Shown: piece after piece, positions 10,529-56,773 of the stretch | Layout: each line of letters begins with the position of its first letter | How positions within the stretch are numbered: the first letter of the stretch is position 1 | Assembly (NCBI GenBank): GCA_963737265.1 | Contig: CAVTRY010000025.1 | Coordinates: 1-59,653, forward strand | Reading direction: 5' to 3' | Length of the DNA: 59,653 nt | Source of the DNA: an uncultured delta proteobacterium | Lineage (GTDB): Bacteria; Myxococcota_A; Polyangia; Fen-1088 | Made by a program: the position numbers and the translations under genes | Notes under the pieces: model-generated | Seen by the model: the letters and a program-made list of their open reading frames with translations, nothing else | The model's database searches: none | Told to the model about the DNA's origin: nothing

Positions 10529-11920
10529 ATGCGCGTCGCCTGGTATCTGGCCGCGGGGCTATTTGTCCTGTTCCTCGCCCTGTATCTGCGCGGGCTCGAC
10601 CGCCCCATGGCCAACGGCGACGAGGCCATCTACGCCGAGCTCGGGCGTTCGATGGTGGAAAGCGGCGATTGGCTGACCCCGCGCTGGCAGGACAAGCCGG
10701 TGTGGAATCGTCCGCCAGGCAGCGTGTGGCCCATCGCCATTGCGATGAAGCTCGTGGGACCGCACGCCTGGGTGGTGCGCCTCGCGGGCGCGATCGAGGC
10801 CGCCGTCGTAGTGGTCCTTGTCTTCTTTCTCGGTCGCCGCCGCCGCGACCTGCGCTACGGGTTGCTGGCCGCCGTGCTGTTCGGGTCGTCGACGCTGGTG
10901 CTGCTCTACGCACGATCCATGGTGGCGGAATGGGTCTTGCTCATCGGGCTGCTCGGCGCGCTGCTGTGCTGGGAAAGGGGCCGCGACGATCCACGCTGGC
11001 TCCTCGGCTGGGGGACTCTTCTCGGATTCTGCTTGCTCGCCAAGCAGGTGGTGGGCGCGGTTCCTCTCGTTGCTTGCCTGGCCGATCTGGCCGCGCGACG
11101 GCGAATCGCATGGCGTTGGCTCGGCTCGGGTTGCCTGGTCGCGGCCGTGCTTTGGGGCGGCTGGCTCGCCGTCGAGACCCGGCGTTTCGGGCCGACGTTC
11201 CTGCACCAGCATCTTGTGGTGAACGTACTCGAGCGCGGCCAGGTCGCCATGCTGGAGCGGACCGGCCCAACGTACTATTTGCAAATGTTATGGGTTCTCG
11301 AAGGGCCGCTGGTGCTGCTGTCCCTGCTGGGCCTGCTGCTCGCCCTTTGGCGCCGCGATTTCTTGCCGGCGCTGTGGGGCCTCGGCACCCTGCTGCTGTT
11401 TTCGCTGTCCGCCACACGCTTCAATTACTACGCGCTGCTGGCGTATCCCGCACTGGCCTTGGCCGCGGCGTCTTTGCTCGCCGAGGCCAAGCGCGGGTGG
11501 CTTTCCGCCCCGGTCGTGCTGGCCTGGGCGGTCGTACACTTGGCAATGCCGGGCGGTTCTCGCCCGCTTCGGGTCGAGGACATCGAGCTGGGCGAATTGG
11601 CGGAAATCATGGGGCGGGTCAGTCTTCCCGACGATCCGTTAATTGCGCTCGGGCTGAATCCCTATTCCGCGCGCTTTTACTCGCATCGCAAGACCACCCA
11701 GTTGGTCAGCCGGGACAAAGGCCCACTCTCGGTCGGCGTGCTGGAATCGGACCGCGTGCAGGCATCCGACGTCGCCGGCTACCTTGCCCAGCTTCCGCGT
11801 TGGTTCGCCATCGTCAAAGTCGAGGACGCGCCCCGCCTGGCCGGGCTTTCGCAGGTGTTCGTGGTGGCCAGCTCGGGCCGCTATCTGTTGACCACCAACA
11901 CCTCGGCGCCGGTTCGATGA
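10529..11920 (+). CDS. ArnT/GT39-like (GT-C fold) membrane glycosyltransferase
   Basis: DEAIYAELGRSMVESGDWLTP..NRPP N-terminal motif, multiple TM helices. Confidence 0.88.
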   Translation: MRVAWYLAAGLFVLFLALYLRGLDRPMANGDEAIYAELGRSMVESGDWLTPRWQDKPVWNRPPGSVWPIAIAMKLVGPHAWVVRLAGAIEAAVVVVLVFFLGRRRRDLRYGLLAAVLFGSSTLVLLYARSMVAEWVLLIGLLGALLCWERGRDDPRWLLGWGTLLGFCLLAKQVVGAVPLVACLADLAARRRIAWRWLGSGCLVAAVLWGGWLAVETRRFGPTFLHQHLVVNVLERGQVAMLERTGPTYYLQMLWVLEGPLVLLSLLGLLLALWRRDFLPALWGLGTLLLFSLSATRFNYYALLAYPALALAAASLLAEAKRGWLSAPVVLAWAVVHLAMPGGSRPLRVEDIELGELAEIMGRVSLPDDPLIALGLNPYSARFYSHRKTTQLVSRDKGPLSVGVLESDRVQASDVAGYLAQLPRWFAIVKVEDAPRLAGLSQVFVVASSGRYLLTTNTSAPVR

Positions 11921-43920: not shown

Positions 43921-44388
43921 ATGGAAACGAACAGCGACTTGGAAATGAGTTTGGGGACGAGGGCGCCGAGGGGGCCAGGCAAGACTCTCAAACGGCGATC
44001 GCGCGTGCTTATCGCGGAAGATGACTGGGGCTTCAGGGACATGCTGCTTTTCGCCTTCGAGGACGAAGGCTGCGAAGTCGTGGCAGTGGGCGACGGCGCT
44101 TCCCTGCTTCAAGTCCTCGCATCCTCAATGCTCCCGAAGTCTGGCGTAAAGCCGTTCGACCTGGTTGTGTCCGACGTGAGAATGCCGGGATGGAGCGGTC
44201 TTACAGCCCTGGAAAAGCTCAGCCAAGACCCAAAGGTACCTCCGGTTGTCGTGATCACGGCCTTCGGCAGCGAAGAAGTCCACGAGCGAGCCGCGCGAGC
44301 CGGGGCAGCGGCGGTGTTGGACAAGCCTTTCGATATTCCAGACTTGACGGCCATTGGTCGTCGCGTGATCGCCCAGCACGCGGCATAG
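43921..44388 (+). CDS. Single-domain response regulator (receiver) 1
   Basis: VLIAEDD, SDVRMPG, ITAFG, DKPF. Confidence 0.93.
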   Translation: METNSDLEMSLGTRAPRGPGKTLKRRSRVLIAEDDWGFRDMLLFAFEDEGCEVVAVGDGASLLQVLASSMLPKSGVKPFDLVVSDVRMPGWSGLTALEKLSQDPKVPPVVVITAFGSEEVHERAARAGAAAVLDKPFDIPDLTAIGRRVIAQHAA

Positions 44389-45151: not shown

Positions 45152-45344
45152 CTACAGGCGGTCTTTCGATGAGAATATGACGGCGCCTGCGTCCCTTTCG
45201 ACACCGGACGCCTGTTCGCGTGCGTGTGCCACGGCGTCTAGCTCTTCCTTGATCCTCGGGAAAGCGTAGCGCACTTGGCCGGCGCCGTCGGTGACCACAT
45301 CACCGCCCAGTACGACCAGCGAGCGGTCCAATACCTCGGCCGTG
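45152..45344 (-). pseudogene. 3' end of an unknown gene fused to the TPR fragment
   Basis: ..LGGDVVTDGAGQVRYAFPRIKEELDAVAHAREQASGVERDAGAVIFSSKDRL* reads as real protein in a different frame from the TPR fragment. Confidence 0.55.
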
Positions 45345-46542
45345 CGAATAGATGGCCAACTCGTCGTTCGCGTGGTGATCGATGATATCGGCGAAGAGCT
45401 TGATGGCGTCGTCGAAATGGTTGTAGTCATAGAAGACACGCGCCTTGCGGTACTTGATTTTGACCAGCTCGGGCGCATCGGGCACGTACTTGATATAGGT
45501 GTCGAAAGCCTCAATCATCTTGTGCTGGTACTCGGGGATAGGCCGCGGCTCGAGGTTGTTCTCTCTTCCCTTCTCCTTGTCCACGCCTTCACCCTCGTCG
45601 CTGATGTTGAGAGCGTTCTTCCATGCCAGCACGGCGGCGTAGGCTGCCTCTTTCACATACTTGCCCTTGGGATCCAGCCTGACGACCTTCGTGTAGACCT
45701 CGGCTGCTTCTTTCCAATCATTCATCTGCCATAGAATCTCGCCGTAGTAGAAGGTGATCTCCGGGGTGTCCTTTTCGTTGGCAAAGTGGCTCAAGAACTC
45801 CTTGTAGACCATTCCCGCCAGTTGGTACGTGTCGGCGTTCTTGGTCCGCTGCGCTTCCTTGTGCCAGATCAGCGCCAGCTCTTTCGCGGTGTCATGGTAC
45901 ACGTCTTTGCATTCGCTCATGAGGTCCTTCTTGACGTCCTGTCTTTTGGCCAGTGCCTCGTAGACGTTGCCCAGCCGCTTGAGCTCTTGTACCTGGTCCC
46001 TCTTGTTGCCGCTCAACAAGGTGTTGCGCAGGATCTTGTCCTGCCATTCGCAAAGACGCGTCGATCCTTCGTTGAGCGCGATAATCTTGCGATAGATCTT
46101 CGACGACTCGGGAAACATGCCTTGTTCCCAATAGAGCTCGGCCAGCGCATCTAGCATCTTGGGTGCGTCGTCGCCGCCCATGCGTTCGAAGAACTCCCAA
46201 GCCTTGTCGGGACTGGCCCCTGGCGTTCGTCCATAGGCCTTGACCAGAATCCTTTTTTGCCTCTCGTTCGAGAGGCACGGCCTGGTTCTTGGGGATCTTC
46301 CCATTTTGACAGAGCTGGATGACCTTGACGAAGATCTCAAGGGCGTTCTTGAAGTTGCCCAAGTTGATTTCGACCCAGCCCTTCTTGTACAGGGCGTAGC
46401 CGAACACGGAAGAGCCCGTGAACTCGGTGACCTTCTCGTAGAACTTGCCTGCGTTCTCCATCTCGCCCTTTTGGAAATAGAGCTCGGCGAAGGACAGGTA
46501 GGCGTTCGGGACGTACTTGGACTGAGGATAGTCCTTGAATAG
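45345..46542 (-). pseudogene. Internal, frameshifted fragment of a large TPR protein (GltD/AgmU-like gliding protein)
   Basis: LFKDYPQSKYVPNAYLSFAELYF..YALYKKGW..EAKKD/LVKAY..WHKEAQRTK..EAAYAAVLAW..; 1-bp insertion near 46248; no in-frame start and no natural end. Confidence 0.75.
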
Positions 46543-46644: not shown

Positions 46645-46676
46645 GTGGCAATCAGTCCCGCGTGGCAAATCGCCGC
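46645..46676. promoter_or_regulatory. Tandem palindrome UAS copy 3 (degenerate)
   Basis: GTGGCAatcAGTCCC-GC-GTGGCAaatCGCCGC. Confidence 0.65.
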
Positions 46677-47150
46677 GTGGCAGAGAATCGCGTGCGCATG
46701 CGATCCCAGACCGAGAAGGACTCGAGGCGCATCTCGGCGAGCTTTCCCTTGGGAATGCTGACCAGCGTGCGATCAAGGGTCCGGATCCGGGGTCGAGCAA
46801 AGTCGGCTCGCCTCGACAGTGCCAACGCAATCCTCAACACGCACGAAGTCGCCCGCGCGAAACGGCCGGTCAGGGCGAATCCTTGACAAGTTTGTCTTCA
46901 GGCGCGACCACACCTACGCTGGGCTGGCGCTCGAAGGCGAGCCGGTCCAGGCTCCTTTGCCTGCGGTTATCACACCCGCCACGATCGACGCGATAGCGCA
47001 CCAACTGGCCGGATGCGTGTCAGCCAACGGGATCTCCGTTTCTGTTGCGGACTGTGCCATGGCCGTCGCGAAGTGGGGTTCCTCGCCTTCATCACGTGCA
47101 GTGAAAAGCGCGCTTCCCAATGGGACGCGCCTGGCAGAGGCCGGAGATCT

Positions 47151-47182
47151 GTGGCAAGCCGCCTCGCGAGGCGTGCGGCCAC
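47151..47182. promoter_or_regulatory. Tandem palindrome UAS copy 4
   Basis: GTGGCAagcCGCCTC-GC-GAGGCGtgcGGCCAC. Confidence 0.72.
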
Positions 47183-47225
47183 AGTCGTTTGCGGAATTCG
47201 TGGCCGCTTTGGCGAGCAGATTGGC

Positions 47226-47241
47226 AGGCACTCTTCATGCA
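47226..47241 (+). promoter_or_regulatory. Sigma54 promoter of receiver protein 2
   Basis: AGGCACT-CTTC-ATGCA. Confidence 0.62.
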
Positions 47242-47254
47242 CAGACCTGGTGGC

Positions 47255-47722
47255 ATGCAAACTTCGACGCGAGACAGTTCAGACTCCGACGGTATCTCGA
47301 TGCGTAAGGCACGCGGGGGAAAGACTGTCCGTCGCTTGGGCCCCCAGCGACTGCTGCTCGCCGAAGATGACGGTCCGTTTCGTTTTCTGCTCACGTCGGC
47401 CCTGCGCAAAGACGGGTACCAGATTGTCGCCGTATCCAACGGTGTGGATCTGATGGATATCCTCGGCGATTCGCTTAGCCCGGACGGCACTTTCGCCGCC
47501 TTCGACCTCATGCTCTCTGACCTTCGCATGCCGGGATGGCCGGGGCTAGAAGCCTTGGCCAAGGTGGGACGCAATCCCGGCATGCCGCCGTTCATACTTT
47601 TCACTGCGTTTGGCGACGAAGATACCCACAAGCGCGCGCTTGAAATTGGCGCCCTGACCCTACTCGACAAACCATTCGATATCGACTACCTGCGCGAGCT
47701 TGCGGCGCTGGTGCTTGGCTAA
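47255..47722 (+). CDS. Single-domain response regulator (receiver) 2 (start 47255 or 47300)
   Basis: LLLAEDD, SDLRMPG, FTAFG, DKPF. Confidence 0.9.
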   Translation: MQTSTRDSSDSDGISMRKARGGKTVRRLGPQRLLLAEDDGPFRFLLTSALRKDGYQIVAVSNGVDLMDILGDSLSPDGTFAAFDLMLSDLRMPGWPGLEALAKVGRNPGMPPFILFTAFGDEDTHKRALEIGALTLLDKPFDIDYLRELAALVLG

Positions 47723-50017
47723 TCACAGATTCGTCCCAATATTTCCTATGGAAATGCTGGGGCCGAACAGTAACGACCAGTGGGTCGCGTCGCTATGGGC
47801 AACGCCGTCCGGGGAGGTGTATGCATAGGCGGCTCGGAATTCGTAGGCGCCCCACAGATGGACGCCTACCGCGGCGCCTTGGCCGACCTCGACGCGCAGT
47901 CCGATCCCGAGCAGCGTGACCAGGGTCGGGGGAAACGGCAGTGTGTTGATGTATTGCTGAGGAATAAGGCTCGCGCCAAGCACGCCAGTTTCGAGTCCCA
48001 GCAAGCCTTCCTTGCCCTGTCGGTTGAGCCAAGTCAGGCGGCCGAGCACGCCGAAGTTGAGGGTCATGGAGGCCGCCGGCTGGTTGATGCGGTAGAGACC
48101 GGCCGGAACATTGAGGCTGACGTAGAGGCGAACGTGGCCGCCCTCGACAGTCGCTGACCATTGTACCGAAGGTGGCTCCTGTTTTCCGCTGGTGTCCAGA
48201 ACGTAGCGAGTTTCGTCGACGACATGGGACAGCCTGACCTCGATCTGGTCGAATTGTTCGGTGATGCCCTTGAGAAAGAAAACCCGCGGCTCGCCCCCGG
48301 GCCTGAGCACCATGTGTTCGTTCACGCTGGCGTCCGAGCGCTTGCCCCCGCTCGCCTTGGTGACTTCGATCTCGAGAACGATCTGCTGCTGTCCGTCTTC
48401 AGGCGATACGCGCTCTTGGTGGATGACCACTCGGCACGTTGCCCGAGCAGAGTATGGAATGCGCGCGGGTTTGCCCGGAATGAGGGCGTGGGCATTACCG
48501 TGAGCGTCGGCACATAGGAATTCGGCGATGGGATCCTTGCGTGTTGCTGTGGCGTCGAACGCAACGGGAACGCTGGCCTCGCGCAGCGGACGCTCCACGG
48601 TTTCGCTCAGAATGGCCAGGTTCACATCGGAAAACTCCTTGGGCAAGTCATCGCGACGATAAGCGTAGCGCAAGCTCACGAACCCGCCGCTCTTTCGGTT
48701 TCCACGTAGAAGGTTGCGATCCTTCTCGGTACGCAGGGTGTAGGCACCAGGAAGCTCAAGAGGCAAGAACCTCGCGTGGGGCACACCACCCACGGACCAC
48801 AAGGCATCGCGATTGGTCGGTATGAAATCGATGGGACTGTGGCCAGGCAGTTCCAGCGTCGATTCCGGTCGCGGCGCTGGCGCGGTCGGGGTCGTCACCG
48901 AACCCAATACCCCGGCCACGGAATCCGCGCGCGTCGCCGAGATGGTGACGCTTCCACCCGCAAGCTGCTCCGTACGCAAGAGCACATAGTCACCGTCACT
49001 GGTGTGAACGGTGCGGACAATCTCCGCGGGTTCGGTGCCGACGGACCAGCGCAGTCGGGCGCTGCTTCGGCATCGCTCGGCTACCTTGACCAGAATCTGG
49101 GGTTCATCCGCGTCGCGCAGGGGTGGGCCAGAAACCACGGTGATCGGGCAGCGTAGAATCGTGAAGGTGCCAGCCGTGCTACTTTCCGTCCGGTCTCCGC
49201 GGCTGATGGCGAAACGTGGTGACAGACGTGCTGTGACGGCGATCTGGGTCGACTGCGCCGGGACGCCGCGAACCAGAATCCCGCCTTCGCCCAGTTCGCA
49301 ACGGGCCAAACCGCAGTCGACACTGGCGATCGCTTCCGGATGCACCAAAGGCAAGACGCCCATTCCCTGCGAGACGTCCAGGGATTCCGTCGCGGCGAAT
49401 ATCTGCCCAACGACGGTACGCGCGGGCCTGAGCTTGAACGAGGCGACGTCCACACGCTGTCCTTGGCTGTCGAAGGTGGTCACGTCTGGACCGTCCTTGG
49501 CGTATGCCGGCAGCCAGCGAAACGCGGTGTCGAAGGGGAGCTTGCGGGCGAGCGGGATAGCACACTGCTGGAACTTGCCGGTGGCCGTTGGCGCAAGACA
49601 GGCTTCCTGGCCGCTGTGACTGGGCGACTGCCACAGGATTTGACTTTGTTCGACATTCGTTCCCTTGAATTCGAGGCGGCCTTCGTCGGGATAGAAGGCA
49701 ACGCTTGAAGGGTCGATATCGGGCCAGCGGCCGACAGCGATCAAAGTCAGCGCGGATTTTGCGTGCGCGCAGCCATTCGGATCCGCGGCCACCTGGACTT
49801 CGACGGTCCGGTTGGAGACACTTGCGGCTTCGGGCGGGCGCACCGACTGGCGATCTCCAGAGGATGTCCACCCGTCGGGTGAAGGACTGCAAAGCACGCG
49901 ATTCTTGCCAAGAGGGACTGCGTTGGCGCCCTCAGGAACTTGGAGGGTTTCAGCAAGCGCGACAGCATCGGCTAATGAAACGACGAAAACGACGGCAAGG
50001 AGAATGCGTTTTTTCAT
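47723..50017 (-). CDS. Secreted/outer-membrane hypothetical protein (764 aa)
   Basis: Signal peptide MKKRILLAVVFVVSLADAVALA; paired Cys; amphipathic beta-strand-like C-terminus. Confidence 0.85.
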   Translation of the reverse strand: MKKRILLAVVFVVSLADAVALAETLQVPEGANAVPLGKNRVLCSPSPDGWTSSGDRQSVRPPEAASVSNRTVEVQVAADPNGCAHAKSALTLIAVGRWPDIDPSSVAFYPDEGRLEFKGTNVEQSQILWQSPSHSGQEACLAPTATGKFQQCAIPLARKLPFDTAFRWLPAYAKDGPDVTTFDSQGQRVDVASFKLRPARTVVGQIFAATESLDVSQGMGVLPLVHPEAIASVDCGLARCELGEGGILVRGVPAQSTQIAVTARLSPRFAISRGDRTESSTAGTFTILRCPITVVSGPPLRDADEPQILVKVAERCRSSARLRWSVGTEPAEIVRTVHTSDGDYVLLRTEQLAGGSVTISATRADSVAGVLGSVTTPTAPAPRPESTLELPGHSPIDFIPTNRDALWSVGGVPHARFLPLELPGAYTLRTEKDRNLLRGNRKSGGFVSLRYAYRRDDLPKEFSDVNLAILSETVERPLREASVPVAFDATATRKDPIAEFLCADAHGNAHALIPGKPARIPYSARATCRVVIHQERVSPEDGQQQIVLEIEVTKASGGKRSDASVNEHMVLRPGGEPRVFFLKGITEQFDQIEVRLSHVVDETRYVLDTSGKQEPPSVQWSATVEGGHVRLYVSLNVPAGLYRINQPAASMTLNFGVLGRLTWLNRQGKEGLLGLETGVLGASLIPQQYINTLPFPPTLVTLLGIGLRVEVGQGAAVGVHLWGAYEFRAAYAYTSPDGVAHSDATHWSLLFGPSISIGNIGTNL

Positions 50018-50047
50018 GGCGTAATTCAAAGAGGCGGCAAAGTGCGA

Positions 50048-50217
50048 CTACTTGCTTTTGTCGAAGCGCTCTAGCTTGCGATACATGGTGCGGCGATCGA
50101 AACCTAGAATCTGCGCGGCGGAAGTCTTGTTTCCAGCCACTGCATCGAGAACCCGCAGGATGTAGCCAGCCGGCACAGGGCCGCGTCGTCATCCACGATC
50201 AGAATCGACTTGTTCAT
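50048..50217 (-). pseudogene. Internally deleted sigma54-dependent (NtrC/AtoC-type) activator gene
   Basis: MNKSILIVDDDAALC joined out of frame to GYILRVLDAVAGNKTSAAQILGFDRRTMYRKLERF* (Fis-type HTH); AAA+ domain absent. Confidence 0.88.
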
Positions 50218-50730
50218 TAGGTGTTTCCGGTTTGTGAATCGAGGGCAGATACGTCGAGAAGCGGCTTCCCTTGTCTACCACGCTGGTCGCGGCGATCCAG
50301 CCGCCGTGATCGCGAACGATACCGTGGGCGACCGAAAGTCCGAGGCCAGTCCCGCTACCTACTTCTTTGGTAGTGAAGAAGGGCTCGAAGGCATGGCGGA
50401 GCTGCTCACTGGTCATGCCGCCGCCAGTGTCCTCGACATGTAGGCAAGCATACCCGCCTGCGGTGGCGGGCACGCCCAGGGGCGGCGAGACAACCTCTTC
50501 GCAGGAGTGAATGGTGAGGACGCCGCCTTTGGGCATGGCCTAAATGGCGTTGACGACCAGGTTGGTCAGGGCTTGCTCGATGAGACCAACGTCGATCTCT
50601 GCGAAGGGTTCTGGTTCGCTGTGATTGGTTTTGAAAGCAATAGATGACTTTTGCGCCATCGGGTGGAGCAGCGCCAGGGTGCGATCCACCACGCCCCGAA
50701 GGCTCTCTTTCCGACGTTGGGGTTGGCCGG
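50189..50730 (-). pseudogene. Truncated sensor histidine kinase (HATPase_c only, internal TAG)
   Basis: IEQALTNLVVNAI*AMPKGG..VEDTGGGM..FEPFFTTKEVGSGTGLGLS; stop at 50540-50542; HisKA and sensor domains missing. Confidence 0.9.
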
Positions 50731-50737
50731 TCGCCAC

Positions 50738-50769
50738 GTGACAACTTGCCACGCGTGGCGAATTGCCTC
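50738..50769. promoter_or_regulatory. Tandem palindrome UAS copy 5
   Basis: GTGACAactTGCCAC-GC-GTGGCGaatTGCCTC. Confidence 0.85.
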
Positions 50770-50813
50770 GGCGTGAAGGCTGGCGATCTCGACTCCGACC
50801 CATGTTCTGACCG

Positions 50814-50829
50814 TGGCACGTCGCTTGCT
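50814..50829 (+). promoter_or_regulatory. Sigma54 promoter of the OmpA/MotA/MotB-like operon
   Basis: TGGCACG-TCGC-TTGCT, full consensus match. Confidence 0.9.
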
Positions 50830-50843
50830 GCCGCGTTCCTGGC

Positions 50844-51728
50844 ATGCAATCAGAAAGTCATTCTTGCAGAACCTATTCCTGGCTAACCGTTTCCTCGACC
50901 CTTCTGCTTTTCGGGGTTGCGGCCAGCGCGTGCGTGACCAGCGGAACCTTCGACAAGAAGGTCGCCGAGCTGGACAAGCTTCGCGCCGACCACGACCGCG
51001 CGGCGGCTGAGCGAGAGAAGGATCTCAAGGCGCAGATCGATGCTCTCACAACCCTGCGGGACGATTTGCGCAAGAAGGCCGACGATATGACGGCGCTGGC
51101 TGGTGAGCTTCGCTCCCGGCTCGAGAAGCTGGGACAGAATGTGGACAAGCTCACCAGTGAGAAGGGGCAGCTGGCGCAAGTCCTCGCCGACGCCAAGGCT
51201 CGTCTCGACGACCTACGAAAGCAGAAGGCCGCGGCCGAAGCGCGCGCGGCGACGTTTCGCAATCTCGTCGCTCGCCTCAAGTCCATGATCGATGCCGGCC
51301 AGCTCAAAGTCGTCATTCGCGATGGCCGCATGCTTATCGCTCTGCCCAACGATGTCTTGTTCGATTCGGGGAAGACCAATATCAAACCGGACGGCCAGAC
51401 CGCGCTGGCCCAGGTCGCCAAGGTCCTGTCGACGATTCCAGACCGCAACTTCCTGGTCGCAGGCGACACCGACGACGTTCCCATTCACACAGCTCACTTT
51501 CCCTCGAACTGGGAGCTGTCCACGGCCCGCGCCGTCGAAGTGACGAAATTCCTCATCGCGAATGGTATGCGGCCGCAGGTTCTCGCCGCTGCGGGGTACG
51601 GGGAGTTCGACCCCGTGGTGGCGAACGATTCGCCCGAACATCGGGCCCAGAACCGGCGCATTGAGATTGTTCTTCAACCCAACCTCGCCGATCTGCCTTC
51701 TCTCGACGAAGGCAAGACGACTCCATGA
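50844..51728 (+). CDS. Coiled-coil lipoprotein with C-terminal OmpA/MotB peptidoglycan-binding domain
   Basis: Lipobox ASAC; LPNDVLFDSG, SNWELSTARA, NRRIEI. Confidence 0.92.
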   Translation: MQSESHSCRTYSWLTVSSTLLLFGVAASACVTSGTFDKKVAELDKLRADHDRAAAEREKDLKAQIDALTTLRDDLRKKADDMTALAGELRSRLEKLGQNVDKLTSEKGQLAQVLADAKARLDDLRKQKAAAEARAATFRNLVARLKSMIDAGQLKVVIRDGRMLIALPNDVLFDSGKTNIKPDGQTALAQVAKVLSTIPDRNFLVAGDTDDVPIHTAHFPSNWELSTARAVEVTKFLIANGMRPQVLAAAGYGEFDPVVANDSPEHRAQNRRIEIVLQPNLADLPSLDEGKTTP

Positions 51729-51762
51729 GGCCATCGACCGATAGTCAAGGGGACGACTTAGA

Positions 51763-52620
51763 ATGACAAGTACAATGCTCGGCGGGCTATCGCTTATTGA
51801 TGCCACTGGCCTTGCAATTCTTGCAACGACGATCACCGTGCTCATGCTTGGCATCGCCGCCAACCTCTGGCTACGCTCGCGCTACGCCGTATTGGAAAAT
51901 GAGCTTCGCAGCCGGCCCGATGGCGAAGCGACCTTGTCGCATCCCGTGCTCCGCAATATCGTTCGCGACGTGACCGAGGCGGCAGGGCGTTCGAGGGAAA
52001 TCAACACCCAGGCTATTATCGACGACCGCTTTCAGTCCGATCTTCGGCCGATGCTGCTTGCTGAGCGCTTTATCCGCGCCGCAACCGGGTTGGTCATCAT
52101 CCTCGGGCTCCTCGGCACGTTCTACGGGCTCACGCTGTCGATCGGAAAGATCGTTCACTTGGTCGGCACGGAGACAAGCGTCGGCACCGACGTGGCACAA
52201 GGGGTTAGCCAGGGTTTGACCAACGCTCTGTCCGGTATGGCGGTAGCTTTCTCGAATTCACTGGTTGGAATTTTCTCCGCGGTGATTCTTACCGTGCTCG
52301 GAATCCTGTCGAATGTCTCGGACCGGCGGACCGCGGTGATGATCCAGATCGAAACCTACCTTGCCGGGATTCCCGTGCAGGTGCCTGGTGCAAGTGGGCC
52401 GGCCGAAATCGCGGGCTTCGGCGGTTCAATCGCGCGGCTCGAAGGCGTGGTCGTGCGTTTCGAGTCGGCTTTGCAAACCTTTGCCGCCACGACCAGGGAC
52501 TTCCACGAGTTCAACGCTCACCTCAAGGACAATGTGCAACGGCTCAGCTTGACTTTTGCCGACATGAACGATTCGCTGAAAGCACAGCTTGGGACCATCG
52601 GGCCTGCGCGGAAGGGCTAG
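51763..52620 (+). CDS. MotA/TolQ/ExbB-family proton-channel subunit (ZorA-like, short helical tail)
   Basis: ILGLLGTFYGL..LSGMAVAFSNSLVGIFSA, 3 TM helices. Confidence 0.88.
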   Translation: MTSTMLGGLSLIDATGLAILATTITVLMLGIAANLWLRSRYAVLENELRSRPDGEATLSHPVLRNIVRDVTEAAGRSREINTQAIIDDRFQSDLRPMLLAERFIRAATGLVIILGLLGTFYGLTLSIGKIVHLVGTETSVGTDVAQGVSQGLTNALSGMAVAFSNSLVGIFSAVILTVLGILSNVSDRRTAVMIQIETYLAGIPVQVPGASGPAEIAGFGGSIARLEGVVVRFESALQTFAATTRDFHEFNAHLKDNVQRLSLTFADMNDSLKAQLGTIGPARKG

Positions 52621-52626
52621 CGGAAA

Positions 52627-53535
52627 ATGCCCATGCGATCCCGGAGGCCGCTTCTGTCCGATCACGATGGTACGCGCGAGATCTGGCCCGCTTTCACGGA
52701 CGTCATGTCGACCATGGCACTCATCATGTTCGTTCTGGTCTTGCTTGCCTACGTCCGGAACTTGATCGGCGAAAAGCGCCTGGAGGATTTTCGCCAACGG
52801 ATCGCGGCCTCCGAACGCCAGCTCAAATCCGTACAGACCGAAGTCCAAGCGGGCAGGGCTGAGCTTGCGGCATCCCAGCGCAGGTTGTTCGATCAGCAGG
52901 CCGTCGTGGCCGATAGCAATCGCCAACTGAGCAACCTGCGCGCCCAGCTGCAAAACATCGCGGTTCTGCGCGTCTCAGTGCTCGACAAATTGAAGAGCGC
53001 TATCGAGGCCCAACTCGGGCCCACCGGCGCGGGTGGTGGACAGCTCGCCACCATCGGCGACAACGGCGATATCGCGGTCAACGAGAGTCTGGTGTTCGAG
53101 TACAACTCGCATGCGATCAAGAAGCAGGCCAAGCCTTTCCTCGATTCGCTGGCCAAGGCGCTCGGCAATCTGCTGGCCGATCCCGAGGTGCGTGAGAACA
53201 TCGACACCATCGTCATCCAGGGCCACACCGACGAACGCGGCTCAGCCACCTTCAATTGGGATCTGTCGGCCAAGCGTGCGACCGCGGTGCTCGACTACCT
53301 GTTCCAGACCAACAAGACGCTCGCCGATAGCTATGGCAGCTACTTCGCCGCCAGTGCCTACTCGAAGTTTCGTCCTGTCAACCGCGAGCAATCCGAAACG
53401 GCCTACCAACAGAACCGCCGCATCGAGATCTCCGTCGTGCCCAAGGACGCCAACGTGCGCAAGGTGATTGAGGACTACATGCAGGGCAGCGCCGCTGTAT
53501 TGCAGCCGGCCGGCCAGCCTGCTCAAGGGCAGTAG
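52627..53535 (+). CDS. MotB/ZorB-like subunit: TM with conserved Asp, coiled coil, OmpA-like domain
   Basis: WPAFTDVMSTMAL TM; IQGHTD, NWDLSAKRA, NRRIEI. Confidence 0.9.
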   Translation: MPMRSRRPLLSDHDGTREIWPAFTDVMSTMALIMFVLVLLAYVRNLIGEKRLEDFRQRIAASERQLKSVQTEVQAGRAELAASQRRLFDQQAVVADSNRQLSNLRAQLQNIAVLRVSVLDKLKSAIEAQLGPTGAGGGQLATIGDNGDIAVNESLVFEYNSHAIKKQAKPFLDSLAKALGNLLADPEVRENIDTIVIQGHTDERGSATFNWDLSAKRATAVLDYLFQTNKTLADSYGSYFAASAYSKFRPVNREQSETAYQQNRRIEISVVPKDANVRKVIEDYMQGSAAVLQPAGQPAQGQ

Positions 53536-53543
53536 CTCGCCGC

Positions 53544-53575
53544 GTGACAATTTGCCACGCGAGGCAAGTTGTCTC
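53544..53575. promoter_or_regulatory. Tandem palindrome UAS copy 6
   Basis: GTGACAattTGCCAC-GC-GAGGCAagtTGTCTC. Confidence 0.85.
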
Positions 53576-53619
53576 GGTCTTGTGCACCCCAAACCGGCGT
53601 TATCGCGTTGCCGAAATCG

Positions 53620-53635
53620 TGGCATGTCGCTTGCT
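53620..53635 (+). promoter_or_regulatory. Sigma54 promoter of the small lipoprotein
   Basis: TGGCATG-TCGC-TTGCT. Confidence 0.88.
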
Positions 53636-53697
53636 GTAGGAGTCGCGGACAGGAAATGAAACTCCCAACTCAATCCGGACAACGAAAAGGAGAACGC

Positions 53698-54030
53698 ATG
53701 ACTCGCACACTCAAGACTCTCGCTACCGTCTGCCTCGGGGCCTTCTTGCTCGTCAGCGCGGGGTGCGAAGACAAGGAGAGCCAGGAAGCTCTCAAGACAT
53801 GCAGGAACGATCTCAGCAATGTCCAAAAGAACCTCGCGACCCAGACCACAAGCGCGAATGACCTGAAAGCGCAGCTCGCTCAGGCGGAAGCCAAAATCGA
53901 GGAGCTCACCAAAGCCAGCGAGGGCGGCAAGGAGGCGAAGGCCGGTAAAGCATCTGAGCCGAAGGCCAAGTCCGCAGAGGCAAAGAAGGCCGAACCTTCG
54001 AAGGCCGAAAAGAAATCCGCGAAGAAATAG
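53698..54030 (+). CDS. Small coiled-coil lipoprotein with Lys/Ala-rich tail
   Basis: AAGGAG RBS, lipobox SAGC. Confidence 0.85.
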   Translation: MTRTLKTLATVCLGAFLLVSAGCEDKESQEALKTCRNDLSNVQKNLATQTTSANDLKAQLAQAEAKIEELTKASEGGKEAKAGKASEPKAKSAEAKKAEPSKAEKKSAKK

Positions 54031-54318: not shown

Positions 54319-54365
54319 GAAGTTGGTAAGAACCCTTCGTGGGTTATTACAGCAAAGGATTCGTA

Positions 54366-56240
54366 GTGACTGAGCACCCCTTTCGTGATGTCTTCGCATT
54401 TCGCCGCCACTTTGTAGATTTCGGAACGCTGCTTCTTCTTTGCGCCGTCGTCGGCGTCATCGCCGGTCTTGGTGCGGCTGGATTTCACTACCTGCTCGGG
54501 CTTGCCAAGCACCTTTTGCTGGACGGGCTGGCGGGCTATCGGCGATCGGGACCAGCGGGGGAGGTGCCGCTGTTTGCGGAAACCGCGCGCCCTTTGTCCC
54601 GACTGATTCTCTTCGGACTGCCAGCACTCGGCGGCCTGGTGAGCGGGATTATTGTCTACCTACTTGCGCCCGAGGCAGAGGGGCACGGCACCGATGCCGC
54701 AATCGCCGCGTACCATTTCCACGACGGAAAGATTCGAGCCCGCGTTCCCTTCGTCAAAGCCATCGCGTCTGCCATCACCATGGGCACGGGTGGCTCGGCT
54801 GGCCGGGAAGGTCCCATCGCGCAAATCGGCGCAGGGCTCGGCTCGAACATCGCGGGCTGGCTCGGGCTTTCCGCACGTCAACGGCGCACCCTCATGATTG
54901 CGGGCATGGGGGCTGGCATTGGCGCCATCTTCCGCGCCCCACTGGCCGGGGCACTCTTCGCCGCCGAGGTGCTCTATCGGGATATGGACCTCGAACCCGA
55001 GGTCGTGGCGCCGGCCATCCTGTCGTCTATTGTTGCGTACAGCACCTTTGGTTCCATTTTCGGTTGGCATGCTCTGTTCGAGACACCGAACTTTCGCTTT
55101 CGCACGCCGATGGAGCTTGGTCCCTACCTGGTGCTGGGCTTGGTGATCGCGCTCGGGGGCCGAACGTATCCCCAGGTGTTCTACGGCATTCGCAACTGGT
55201 TCAAGAAGCTTGCCATGCCCAACTGGCTGAAGCCCGCCGTCGGGGGGCTGATGGTGGGCGGCGTGGGGCTCTTTGTTCCCGAGGCGCTCTCGACGGGATT
55301 CGGCGTGGTGCAGAAGGCATTCCAGGGTCAAGGAACCGTGCTCACCTTGTTGGCCATCGCGGGCGCCAAGATGCTGACGACTTCCCTTACTGTGGGCTCC
55401 GGCGGCAGCGGCGGCGTTTTCGGGCCGGCCGTTGTCATCGGGGGTGCCCTCGGTGGTGCGGTGGGGTTGGTCTTTCACGGGTGGCAGCCTGCGCTGGTTC
55501 CCGACCCAGGTGCCTTTGCCATGGTCGGCATGGCTGGATTCTTCTCCGCTGCGGCTCACGTGCCAATCTCGACGGTCATCATGGTCAGCGAAATGACCGG
55601 GAACTACCATCTGCTGGTCCCTACCATGTTCGTCTGCATGCTGGGATTCCTGCTCGTCAGGCATCACACCATCTACGAGAAGCAGCTTCCGGCGCGCTCG
55701 GCGTCTCCCGCGCAACAGCGCCAGATCATCCGCACGCTTCTTGAGCACACCAAGGTCGAGGACATCCTGGCCCTGCGGCCAAGAGAACCTCCGGTTTCAG
55801 TGAGTGAGCGAACGCCTTTGCCAGTCGTGCTCGAGCGATTCGCATCCGGAGGCCAGCCTTGCCTTCCCGTGACCGGGCATGGCGACGCGCTGGTGGGCGT
55901 GGTTTCATTCCAGGCGGTGCAACAGACGCTGAGTAGTCGAGCGGCCCTGGCCAACCTGATCGTGACACGCGATCTCGTCACCCCCGCGGTAACCGTCACC
56001 GCCGACCAAAGCCTGTATTCAGCGCTGGCCAAGATGTCGGCCTTCGACAGCAGGGAATTACTCGTCGTGGCGAATCAGGACTCGCATGAGAAGGTGATTG
56101 CCATCCTCACCAGCGGCGACATCAACGCCATCTACGACGAACAGATCCTCAATCCGCCACAAGCCGAGCCGGCCGCGAGCCTCGCGCTTGCGAAAGTGAT
56201 CAAACGATTGCTTCCCAAGGGTTGGTCACGCGGCGCCTGA
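54366..56240 (+). CDS. ClC-family chloride channel/antiporter with C-terminal CBS pair
   Basis: EAEGHGTD, GREGP, GGVFGP, TIYEKQ; CBS-like tail; AAAGGA before GTG 54366. Confidence 0.94.
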   Translation: MTEHPFRDVFAFRRHFVDFGTLLLLCAVVGVIAGLGAAGFHYLLGLAKHLLLDGLAGYRRSGPAGEVPLFAETARPLSRLILFGLPALGGLVSGIIVYLLAPEAEGHGTDAAIAAYHFHDGKIRARVPFVKAIASAITMGTGGSAGREGPIAQIGAGLGSNIAGWLGLSARQRRTLMIAGMGAGIGAIFRAPLAGALFAAEVLYRDMDLEPEVVAPAILSSIVAYSTFGSIFGWHALFETPNFRFRTPMELGPYLVLGLVIALGGRTYPQVFYGIRNWFKKLAMPNWLKPAVGGLMVGGVGLFVPEALSTGFGVVQKAFQGQGTVLTLLAIAGAKMLTTSLTVGSGGSGGVFGPAVVIGGALGGAVGLVFHGWQPALVPDPGAFAMVGMAGFFSAAAHVPISTVIMVSEMTGNYHLLVPTMFVCMLGFLLVRHHTIYEKQLPARSASPAQQRQIIRTLLEHTKVEDILALRPREPPVSVSERTPLPVVLERFASGGQPCLPVTGHGDALVGVVSFQAVQQTLSSRAALANLIVTRDLVTPAVTVTADQSLYSALAKMSAFDSRELLVVANQDSHEKVIAILTSGDINAIYDEQILNPPQAEPAASLALAKVIKRLLPKGWSRGA

Positions 56241-56248
56241 CCAGCTTG

Positions 56249-56671
56249 CTAGGCTCCCTTCCCGGCCAAGAAGTTATTGACGAAAACCCGCAGCTCGTCG
56301 ACATCGAGTGGCTTGTCGAGCACTGCCAACGCGCCGACGTGATGTGCCTGTTCATGCAGTTCCTCGTCGCCGAATGCGGTGATGAACACGACGGGCGGAA
56401 TATTGGGTCCATACCCCACTTGAGTGAAGACGCGCAACCCAGTCATGCCAGGCATTCGGACATCCGAGATCACCAGATCGAATCTTTCCGAACCAAGACT
56501 GGGATCGAGCGCGTCCAGAAGATCGAATCCACTGGCCACTGCGACGACGTCATGTCCGTCCGACCTAAGAAGCGCAACCATCATCTCGCGAAAAGCCCGA
56601 TCATCTTCCGCCACCAGCAGCCGATGTCTGCGGGAACGGTTGCCATCTGAGTACGTTTCTAAATCATGCAC
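56249..56671 (-). CDS. Single-domain response regulator (receiver) 3
   Basis: LLVAEDD, SDVRMPG, ITAFG, DKPL. Confidence 0.92.
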   Translation of the reverse strand: MHDLETYSDGNRSRRHRLLVAEDDRAFREMMVALLRSDGHDVVAVASGFDLLDALDPSLGSERFDLVISDVRMPGMTGLRVFTQVGYGPNIPPVVFITAFGDEELHEQAHHVGALAVLDKPLDVDELRVFVNNFLAGKGA

Positions 56672-56683
56672 ACAGGTTTGACC

Positions 56684-56699
56684 TGCACGAGCGGTGCCA
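56684..56699 (-). promoter_or_regulatory. Sigma54 promoter of receiver protein 3
   Basis: TGGCACC-GCTC-GTGCA on the minus strand. Confidence 0.72.
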
Positions 56700-56741: not shown

Positions 56742-56773
56742 GTGGCGGCCTGCCTCGCGTGGCATCTTGCCAC
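56742..56773. promoter_or_regulatory. Tandem palindrome UAS copy 7
   Basis: GTGGCGgccTGCCTC-GC-GTGGCAtctTGCCAC. Confidence 0.85.

Follow-up and report, generated by a model that had tools for sequence, protein, structure and literature searches.

Ion-driven membrane motors with a 5:2 subunit ratio are known to serve flagellar rotation, Ton import, Tol-Pal constriction, gliding together with type IX secretion, and Zorya defence. The flagellar A subunit, MotA, is built of four transmembrane (TM) helices, its large cytoplasmic torque domain lying between TM2 and TM3, and the B subunits ExbD and TolR have no OmpA domain and act through TonB or TolA. For the Zorya motor, PMC11946911 describes a long ZorA tail whose length matters and a ZorB wall domain fused to its TM helix without a linker, where MotB has a plug and a flexible linker. 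The same paper proposes Thr147 and Ser184 of EcZorA as a selectivity filter and shows that these residues and Asp26 of ZorB matter. Here we describe a pair of adjacent genes, g2 and g3, that encode the A and B subunits of a motor of this kind in a 59,653-bp stretch of DNA from an uncultured myxobacterium (GenBank assembly GCA_963737265.1; class Polyangia). This stretch, called the window below, is the entire contig CAVTRY010000025.1 (C25) of a genome of 6.55 Mb in 25 contigs.

We consider g2-g3 a distinct, stalked, ZorAB-like 5:2 motor pair that has been recruited, in this genome, into a sigma-54 envelope regulon, and we give this reading a probability of roughly 0.6. A first-pass annotation made from the sequence alone had described positions 50844-54030 as a set of four genes, the pair being preceded by a lipoprotein gene (g1) and followed by another (g4). 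That observation as a whole is confirmed, since the four open reading frames (ORFs) on the + strand and both sigma-54 promoters are real; of its interpretation, the stand-alone motor pair stands and the lipoproteins as conserved accessory subunits do not.

The A subunit

The gene g2 (51763-52620, + strand) encodes a protein of 285 residues that its ORF, profile searches and an AlphaFold2 (AF2) model identify as a channel subunit of the 3-TM ExbB/TolQ/ZorA type. It scores 20.7 bits against Pfam MotA_ExbB (cut-off 22.9) and 29.6 bits against NCBIfam ZorA_2 (E 3.7e-7, cut-off 100), and matches PADLOC ZorA1 over the TM region only (E 5.5e-10); apart from the sub-threshold MotA_ExbB match, only ZorA models recognise it. 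The PADLOC defence library was applied only to the four genes and to 20 representatives of the g2 family, 19 of which match only ZorA among membrane-motor families, all weakly, the last one having no match.

The AF2 model of g2 (predicted local distance difference test, pLDDT, 78) contains helices at residues 14-50, 61-76, 82-93, 95-136, 144-183, 185-202 and 217-278. The predicted TM helices are 14-36, 95-125 and 144-183, TM1 and TM2 being separated by only some 57 cytoplasmic residues, so that on this model the layout is the 3-TM plan of ExbB, TolQ and ZorA and not the 4-TM plan of MotA. The modelled fold is the channel fold of the 5:2 superfamily (ExbB/TolQ/MotA): every Foldseek match listed is ExbB, ZorA, TolQ or PomA (probability 0.91-1.00), the best being ExbB 5sv0 (TM-score 0.47/0.58), followed by TolQ, with a best E value of 1.6e-3. 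A family profile of 51 members finds Shewanella type I ZorA (8vvn) as its best solved chain (E 1.3e-5), and matched none of the 12 canonical MotA/ExbB/TolQ genes of the genome at E<=10, the MotA gene on contig C11 included.

Alignment of the 51 A subunits shows invariant residues that include G115, L116, G118, T119 and G122 in TM2 and M159, A162, F163, S166 and G169 in TM3, and E197 is invariant as well. The C-terminal tail of about 100 residues (184-285) is made up of helices 185-202 and 217-278 with a loop between them, and ends in a helix motif, RDFxEFNxHLKDNxQR, that is conserved in the same alignment.

The B subunit and its heptad-stepped stalk

The gene g3 (52627-53535, + strand; ORF, profiles and AF2 model) encodes a 302-residue protein with a TM helix, a stalk and an OmpA-type peptidoglycan-binding domain (OmpA E 8.6e-14), and it is matched end to end by PADLOC ZorB1 (E 1.6e-30). 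The TM aspartate of the 5:2 superfamily is present as Asp25 in the sequence WPAFTD and is invariant in all 34 aligned relatives, as are W20, P21, S28 and the motif GHxD...N..LS..R...NRRI. In the AF2 model (pLDDT 76) a single unbroken helix spans residues 20-130 and is followed by the alpha/beta OmpA domain; about 87 residues of this predicted helix lie past the membrane and would form a stalk of about 13 nm.

We measured the stalk of the 34 B subunits as the number of residues from the invariant Asp25 to the invariant Arg115, a count that is independent of gap placement. The count is 90 in 24 relatives, and in the other ten it is 97, 97, 104, 111, 111, 125, 132, 132 and 139, all of them 90+7n, and 122 (+32), so that nine of the ten length variants differ by exact steps of seven residues. 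The tail linker of the A subunit (E197 to N251), used as a control, ranges from 50 to 96 residues and follows no such rule. The 90+7n counts argue for a continuous, register-sensitive coiled coil, and the heptad rule predicts that the register or the length of the stalk matters.

Conservation and range of the pair

We collected 41 related loci from species-representative genomes (locus labels are L-numbers). A g3 homologue follows g2 directly in 39 of them, and the remaining two contigs stop at g2. The conserved core is the g2-g3 pair, not the quartet.

Relatives of g2 number 943 proteins at E<=1e-3 among 7,303 candidates, and in a full-library search the cluster representatives, which reach about 770 residues in length, number 842 at E<=1e-3, 128 at E<=1e-10 and 44 at E<=1e-30. 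The family occurs in 18 of the 301 sampled genomes of the class and is concentrated in two genera (6/7 and 6/6 genomes). Members of about 300-490 residues carry source labels such as Clostridia bacterium, and the ESM Atlas holds clusters from Myxococcota and Bacillota, one of them mostly Bacillota; the pair is found in Myxococcota and in contigs with Clostridia-labelled relatives.

Ten low-GC or other metagenome loci of the g2 branch were mapped for ORFs and eight of these were scanned with Pfam. In all of the eight but L049, the next gene after the A gene is of the B type, with an OmpA domain (314-349 residues), and these seven B proteins have an N-terminal FWPSF(T/A)D and a coiled coil longer than that of g3. 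The genes around them are housekeeping genes, among them those for phosphoribosyl pyrophosphate synthetase, AsnA and GDP-mannose dehydratases. Three of the loci also have a TPR-like gene of about 306-385 codons after the A/B pair (L048 10523-11482, L049 10293-11450, L051 7779-8699), whose conserved, cytoplasmic product may be a lineage-specific third component. Among viral contigs, none of 223 pattern matches encodes a relative of g2-g3, and a tblastn search of plasmids gave none.

The neighbourhood survey took in the three nearest genes on each side of the pair, and 72 representatives of these neighbours were scanned with Pfam. Eight of the recurring neighbour genes encode NtrC-type activators or receivers; Ser/Thr kinases and Pal-like OmpA lipoproteins follow with seven genes each, HAMP histidine kinases with six, ClC channels and EAL proteins with four each, and Na/H exchangers and PilZ proteins with three each. 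Within 6 kb of g2-g3, kinase genes are found in 12 and activator genes in 9 of the 41 loci. None of the 72 representatives is a flagellar, TonB/TolA, nuclease or helicase gene.

Sigma-54 promoters and a shared upstream site

Two putative promoters of the sigma-54 type flank the pair. That of g1 (50814-50829, + strand; -24 TGGCAC, -12 TTGCT) is a strict pattern match, and that of g4 lies at 53620-53635 (+ strand; TGGCATGTCGCTTGCT). The strict pattern, TGGCAY-N5-TTGCW, has exactly two matches in the window (starting at 50814 and 53620), where 0.08 matches are expected and none of 100 shuffled sequences had two or more; the whole genome has 18 such sites and an RpoN gene on C12. Both window promoters lie 66 nt downstream of the start of a palindrome, GACAAnTTGCC-N6-GGCAAnTTGTC, which is presumably a binding site for a sigma-54 activator: copy 1 (50740-50767; GACAACTTGCCACGCGTGGCGAATTGCC) has two mismatches in 28 nt, and copy 2 (53546-53573; GACAATTTGCCACGCGAGGCAAGTTGTC) is a perfect palindrome with no mismatch on either strand. 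To judge from sequence, then, the two elements have what sigma-54 promoters should have, namely the -24/-12 spacing, a sigma factor to read them and a common upstream site. The ATG of g1 is 14 nt past the -12 element, from which we infer a leaderless or nearly leaderless g1 mRNA, and the short gaps between g1 and g2 (34 nt) and between g2 and g3 (6 nt) make co-transcription of g1-g2-g3 likely, g4 having its own promoter.

If up to two mismatches are allowed, the 28-nt palindrome has just one copy in the 6.55-Mb genome besides the two in the window, and this third site is on contig C15. The C15 copy sits between two divergent sigma-54 promoters, one of which precedes an operon for a 503-residue HAMP/HisKA/HATPase kinase and a 559-residue receiver/sigma-54 activator, and the other a remnant in which g1 and g2 are fused. 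Relaxed patterns give 55 sigma-54-like sites genome-wide, seven of them with a palindrome-like core 53-76 nt upstream. Three of these seven are on C25, before g1, g4 and a single-domain response regulator gene recognised by Pfam scan (56249-56671, - strand), two are on C15, and two on C16, where the targets are a PMT_2 glycosyltransferase gene and a gene for a g4-like small lipoprotein. The promoter of the response regulator is weaker (TGGCAC-N5-GTGCA, 56684-56699, - strand), with its palindrome-like site at 56744-56771. A further palindrome-like site with six mismatches (46647-46674) lies upstream of a receiver-domain gene (47120-47722).

Some of this wiring recurs in relatives. In L014, from the same genus, palindrome, sigma-54 promoter and a g4-like lipoprotein gene stand directly before an orthologue of the kinase (78% identity), about 2 kb downstream of g3. 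In L029 the sequence TGGTAC-N5-TTGCT is found 16 nt upstream of a gene for a Pal-like lipoprotein, with g2-g3 next in order, which mirrors the layout of the window. From -1500 to +3500 nt around g2 in other genomes, the strict pattern has two matches (L016, on the opposite strand, and L029, at -747, in front of the Pal-like gene), neither of them directly before g2, and an alignment of the upstream regions of eight close loci shows no shared element.

The lipoproteins g1 and g4

An OmpA-domain lipoprotein gene upstream of the pair and a separately promoted coiled-coil lipoprotein gene downstream of it, as the first-pass annotation had it, are borne out by the ORFs and promoters. The gene g1 (50844-51728, + strand) encodes 294 residues that include a signal peptide ending in AASAC, about 115 residues of coiled coil and a peptidoglycan-binding OmpA domain of the MotB type (OmpA E 2.4e-18); among solved structures, MotB C-terminal domains are nearest to it (E 8.7e-25). 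It has paralogues on C7 (52%) and C18 (36%) and belongs to a Polyangia family with 5,808 proteins at E<=1e-20 among 8,000 candidates scored, a family far larger than that of g2 and mostly found without g2-g3. The ORF listed for g4 is 53569-54030, but translation probably begins at the ATG at 53699, which AAGGAG precedes; the resulting gene (53699-54030, + strand) encodes a coiled-coil lipoprotein of 110 residues with the lipobox VSAGC and a K/A-rich tail.

In the related loci these genes do not accompany the pair: a g1 homologue adjoins it in one of 41 (L035) and a g4-like gene in one (L014). The proposal that the two lipoproteins are accessory subunits is therefore not upheld. They are co-regulated neighbours in this genome, not conserved subunits. 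OmpA lipoprotein genes as such are found beside the pair in 8 of the 41 loci (seven Pal-like and the g1 homologue of L035); such a gene is directly upstream of g2 here and in L023, L024 and L029, and within three genes of it in L026, L028, L031 and L035.

Small lipoproteins related to g4 are found behind similar sites on C23 and C16 and in L014. The C23 paralogue has two palindrome-like sites and the element CGGCAC-N5-TTGCT upstream; it has 101 residues, and the genes after it encode an OmpA lipoprotein resembling Pal and a proline-rich protein resembling TonB or TolA (L047 4389-6060, that is C23 215389-217060). These may make up a small Tol-Pal-like set, possibly of the same regulon.

Favoured and alternative explanations

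If g2-g3 is a stalked motor under sigma-54 control, a g3 dimer would have its TM helices enclosed by five g2 subunits, and protons passing Asp25 of g3 and Thr119 and Ser166 of g2 may turn the g2 ring around g3, itself presumably fixed to peptidoglycan by the OmpA domain at the tip of a rigid coiled-coil stalk of about 13 nm. The pair would be a family of its own, in which the long Zorya tail is replaced by a short one, cytoplasmic and conserved at its tip, with a stalk and with no effector genes; the tip most likely interacts with a partner in the cytoplasm or the membrane. Here the promoter of the wall-binding lipoprotein gene g1 would have captured the pair, which would make it a member of a small sigma-54 regulon of g1-g2-g3, g4 and its paralogues, single-domain response regulators, the PMT_2 glycosyltransferase and the kinase/activator operon itself. 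The regulon is probably driven by this histidine kinase/NtrC-type activator pair, orthologues of which are found beside g2-g3 in other genomes. Both the choice of the activator that binds the palindrome and the envelope-related role of the pair are inferences. A conserved A/B pair without known partners would imply a further use of the 5:2 machine, and its regulatory wiring offers experimental handles in the palindrome, the sigma-54 promoters, the kinase/activator pair and the co-induced wall-binding lipoproteins.

Several observations weigh against this reading. The matches of g2 to known families are all weak, those to Pfam and NCBIfam being under the cut-off and those of Foldseek having E values of 1.6e-3 or more. 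The neighbourhood of g2-g3 is highly variable: its 216 genes fall into 158 clusters, of which 129 are singletons, so that the context gives little functional direction. A good sigma-54 site directly before g2 is found in none of the 41 loci (400 nt upstream; best 8/11 bases), and control by sigma-54 is peculiar to this genome or genus; the sigma-54 control that had been proposed for the system applies here, with two promoters, the one upstream of the pair belonging to g1. The palindrome is assigned to the C15 activator by adjacency alone, in a genome with 39 sigma-54 activators. Finally, the estimated contamination of this metagenome-assembled genome (MAG) is 7.6%, and the junction at 50727 between a kinase remnant and the g1 promoter is a repeat boundary that none of the short contigs listed bridges.

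A more far-reaching proposal, which we put forward tentatively and think rather improbable, makes the pair a short-stalk member of a pan-bacterial class of wall-anchored, ZorAB-like envelope gauges. The motor would read a membrane-to-wall distance fixed by its heptad-quantised stalk, the tail tip would relay the turning or stalled state to cytoplasmic signalling, in these myxobacteria to the HAMP histidine kinase and the sigma-54 activator, and these would then induce the wall-binding lipoproteins and the motor itself. If true, this would amount to a mechanosensory loop that feeds back on envelope architecture, and the pair would be neither a defence nor a motility device.

Among the alternatives to a stalked motor of its own kind, we think it unlikely that the pair is a Tol-Pal-like or Ton-like energiser driving wall-bound or outer-membrane lipoproteins such as g1, g4 and Pal-like proteins, an idea close to the bridge between outer membrane, peptidoglycan and inner membrane of the first-pass annotation. 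In its favour are the OmpA-domain lipoprotein gene directly upstream of g2 here and in L023, L024 and L029, the last of which repeats the order of sigma-54-like promoter, lipoprotein, g2 and g3, and the g4 paralogue of C23 with the Pal-like and TonB-like genes after it. Weak support also comes from co-folding: the periplasmic part of g3 and mature g1 are predicted to associate with a score of 0.57, against 0.00 for the best control, the runs agreeing in at least 73% of contacts with a partner pLDDT of at least 73. This passes a mark reached by 116 of 157 solved complexes and by 2 of 215 mismatched pairs, but scores of 0.60 or less comprise only 18 of those 157 complexes together with both passing mismatches. 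Domains of the MotB/OmpA type tend to dimerise, and because both chains carry them the pass may reflect a likeness to solved dimers. Against an energiser of this sort, g1 and g4-like genes adjoin the pair in one of 41 loci each, g3 has a wall-binding domain of its own, which TolR and ExbD do not, and no TolA or TonB adaptor gene is adjacent. Moreover, relatives with the same B architecture are labelled by source as Clostridia or Bacillota, which argues against a job specific to the outer membrane, and the proposed bridge is not supported.

A stripped-down or cryptic Zorya-type anti-phage sensor, signalling envelope damage to effectors elsewhere or to the neighbouring two-component system, would fit ZorA and ZorB being the nearest recognisable families, the patchy distribution (18/301 genomes) and the variable gene context, but it too seems improbable to us. 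The tail of about 100 residues differs from the long, length-critical tail given for Zorya in PMC11946911, and the near-universality of the pair in two genera (6/7, 6/6) looks like vertical inheritance; viral contigs and plasmids, as searched above, hold no relative. No Zorya effector gene, and no nuclease, helicase or defence-type Pfam domain, was found in the 72 proteins scanned from around the 41 loci or in the 43 from the metagenome loci; nor did Pfam find an effector gene in the window. The first-pass annotation had raised the case of orthologues that always flank Zorya effectors; none is adjacent in any locus examined. Genome-wide, the effector models run were those of ZorC and ZorD, not ZorE, ZorF or ZorG: ZorC finds nothing in the genome, the same model being silent in all 14 control genomes, and ZorD finds generic helicase parts at 295 bits or less, far under its cut-off of 1500. 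Least probable of all, in our judgement, is a role of the pair at the flagellum of C11, whether as an additional or alternative stator or as a brake or anchor. The genome does have a flagellar set there (about 67-106 kb, partly L046), with FlhA, two flagellins, FliG and canonical MotA and MotB; a second FlhA-family (FHIPEP) gene is on C22. FliG is found in 13 of the 18 genomes with g2 and in 92 of the 283 without it, counts in which kin are not independent. Genes related to cyclic di-GMP lie directly upstream in some loci (PilZ in three, EAL in four), and in one locus GGDEF is the nearest gene downstream. FliG_C occurs in 105 of the 301 sampled genomes, so flagella seem, from their genes, to be common in these uncultured myxobacterial lineages. 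On the other hand, g2 has the 3-TM layout of ExbB and ZorA in its model, without the large TM2-TM3 cytoplasmic domain of MotA, and the family profile passes over all 12 canonical genes; five of the 18 genomes with g2 have no FliG, one of them 97% complete in 20 contigs, and a flagellar gene adjoins the pair in none of the 41 loci. A separate canonical MotAB is encoded on C11, its MotA missed by the profile. The earlier claim of a stand-alone motor pair is supported, g2-g3 resembling ZorAB and ExbBD and differing from the flagellar stator. The accompanying claim that flagellar, TonB/TolA and Zorya effector genes are missing is right for the window, where Pfam finds none among 40 ORFs; for flagellar genes it does not extend to the genome, given the cluster on C11.

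Source of the sequence and neighbouring genes

Among the public runs listed, only DNA contigs from one soil study contain part of the window, and none of the runs is of RNA. These contigs bridge g1 to g2 in two runs and g2 to g3 in one, with no differences, which supports the order g1-g2-g3. The same contigs break at 50726/50727 and carry C15-type forms there. Next to this point, a 3' remnant of a sensor histidine kinase gene with the HATPase_c part only (50189-50845, - strand; HATPase_c E 2.3e-16) consists of two same-frame ORFs split by an in-frame TAG at 50540-50542. It corresponds to the last 179 or so codons of the C15 histidine kinase gene, with 97% identity over 115 residues and 85% over 62 when compared with residues 325-503 of the intact 503-residue protein. 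On C15, in turn, positions 68630-68833 (- strand) hold residues 1-29 of g1 fused to residues 75-119 of g2 behind a copy of the g1 promoter, so that window and C15 contain reciprocal partial duplicates of each other, the kinase 3' end here and the g1/g2 fusion there. Either a real duplication with recombination or a strain chimaera in the MAG could account for them, and with a contamination estimate of 7.6% the two may or may not coexist in one strain.

The locus is flanked by a gene for a 768-residue secreted protein without a Pfam family (47723-50029, - strand) and one for a ClC chloride channel with a CBS domain (54339-56240, + strand). Homologues of the former recur near g2-g3 in the more distant loci L024 and L035, and homologues of the latter in L023, L024, L028 and L035; Na/H exchangers occupy the place of the channel in L004, L008 and L012, and on C16 a second ClC channel gene adjoins another kinase 3' remnant. 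Three stand-alone receiver-domain genes are found in 13 kb of the window (43921-44388, + strand; 47120-47722, + strand; 56249-56671, - strand). A gene with tetratricopeptide repeats (45300-46461, - strand) is split across the overlapping frames 45300-46340 and 45892-46461, which could be a frameshift or an assembly error. The window also has a PMT_2 (ArnT-like) glycosyltransferase gene (10529-11920, + strand), a family that is found after g3 in L017 and L018 and behind palindrome and sigma-54 site on C16.

Comparison with known 5:2 motors

No description of this pair was found in the literature searched (main texts), and the literature found on ZorA/ZorB tails consists of Zorya papers only. 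PMC12505986, in the parts available, covers non-flagellar homologues and not the g2-g3 branch, and in the text of PMC11890865 neither 'orphan' nor 'stand-alone' occurs.

With ExbB and TolQ, g2 shares the 3-TM topology, and these are the best structural matches of its model, although the genome's own ExbB/TolQ genes go undetected by the g2 family profile; unlike ExbD and TolR, g3 has an OmpA domain, and no TonB/TolA adaptor gene is found among the neighbours. With MotB and PomB, g3 shares the plan of a TM aspartate and an OmpA-type domain, and the wall domain of g1 is nearest to MotB C-terminal domains. The MotA layout is not that of g2, which is predicted to have three TM helices and no large cytoplasmic domain between TM2 and TM3.

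The comparison with ZorA-ZorB of Zorya types I-III (PDB 8qyd, 8vvn; PMC11946911 and PMC11890865) gives the closest likeness. Both have a 3-TM A subunit with a C-terminal helical tail, a B subunit with a TM aspartate and an OmpA-type wall-binding domain, and an ion path with a threonine in TM2 and a serine in TM3 of the A subunit. T119 and S166 of g2 correspond to Thr147 and Ser184 of EcZorA, and Asp25 of g3 to Asp26 of ZorB, in the numbering of PMC11946911. ZorA and ZorB are the only named families whose models match both g2 and g3, although the scores are far under the curated cut-offs. The pair nevertheless fails three defining Zorya features: its tail has about 100 residues, where that of ZorA has several hundred; a helical stalk of about 87 residues takes the place of the linker-less attachment of the ZorB wall domain described in PMC11946911; and no ZorC, ZorD, ZorE, ZorF or ZorG gene stands beside it in any locus examined, the context being one of housekeeping and signalling genes. 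As far as our searches go, g2-g3 is thus a real, conserved and apparently undescribed family of the 5:2 superfamily, with ZorAB as its nearest relative.

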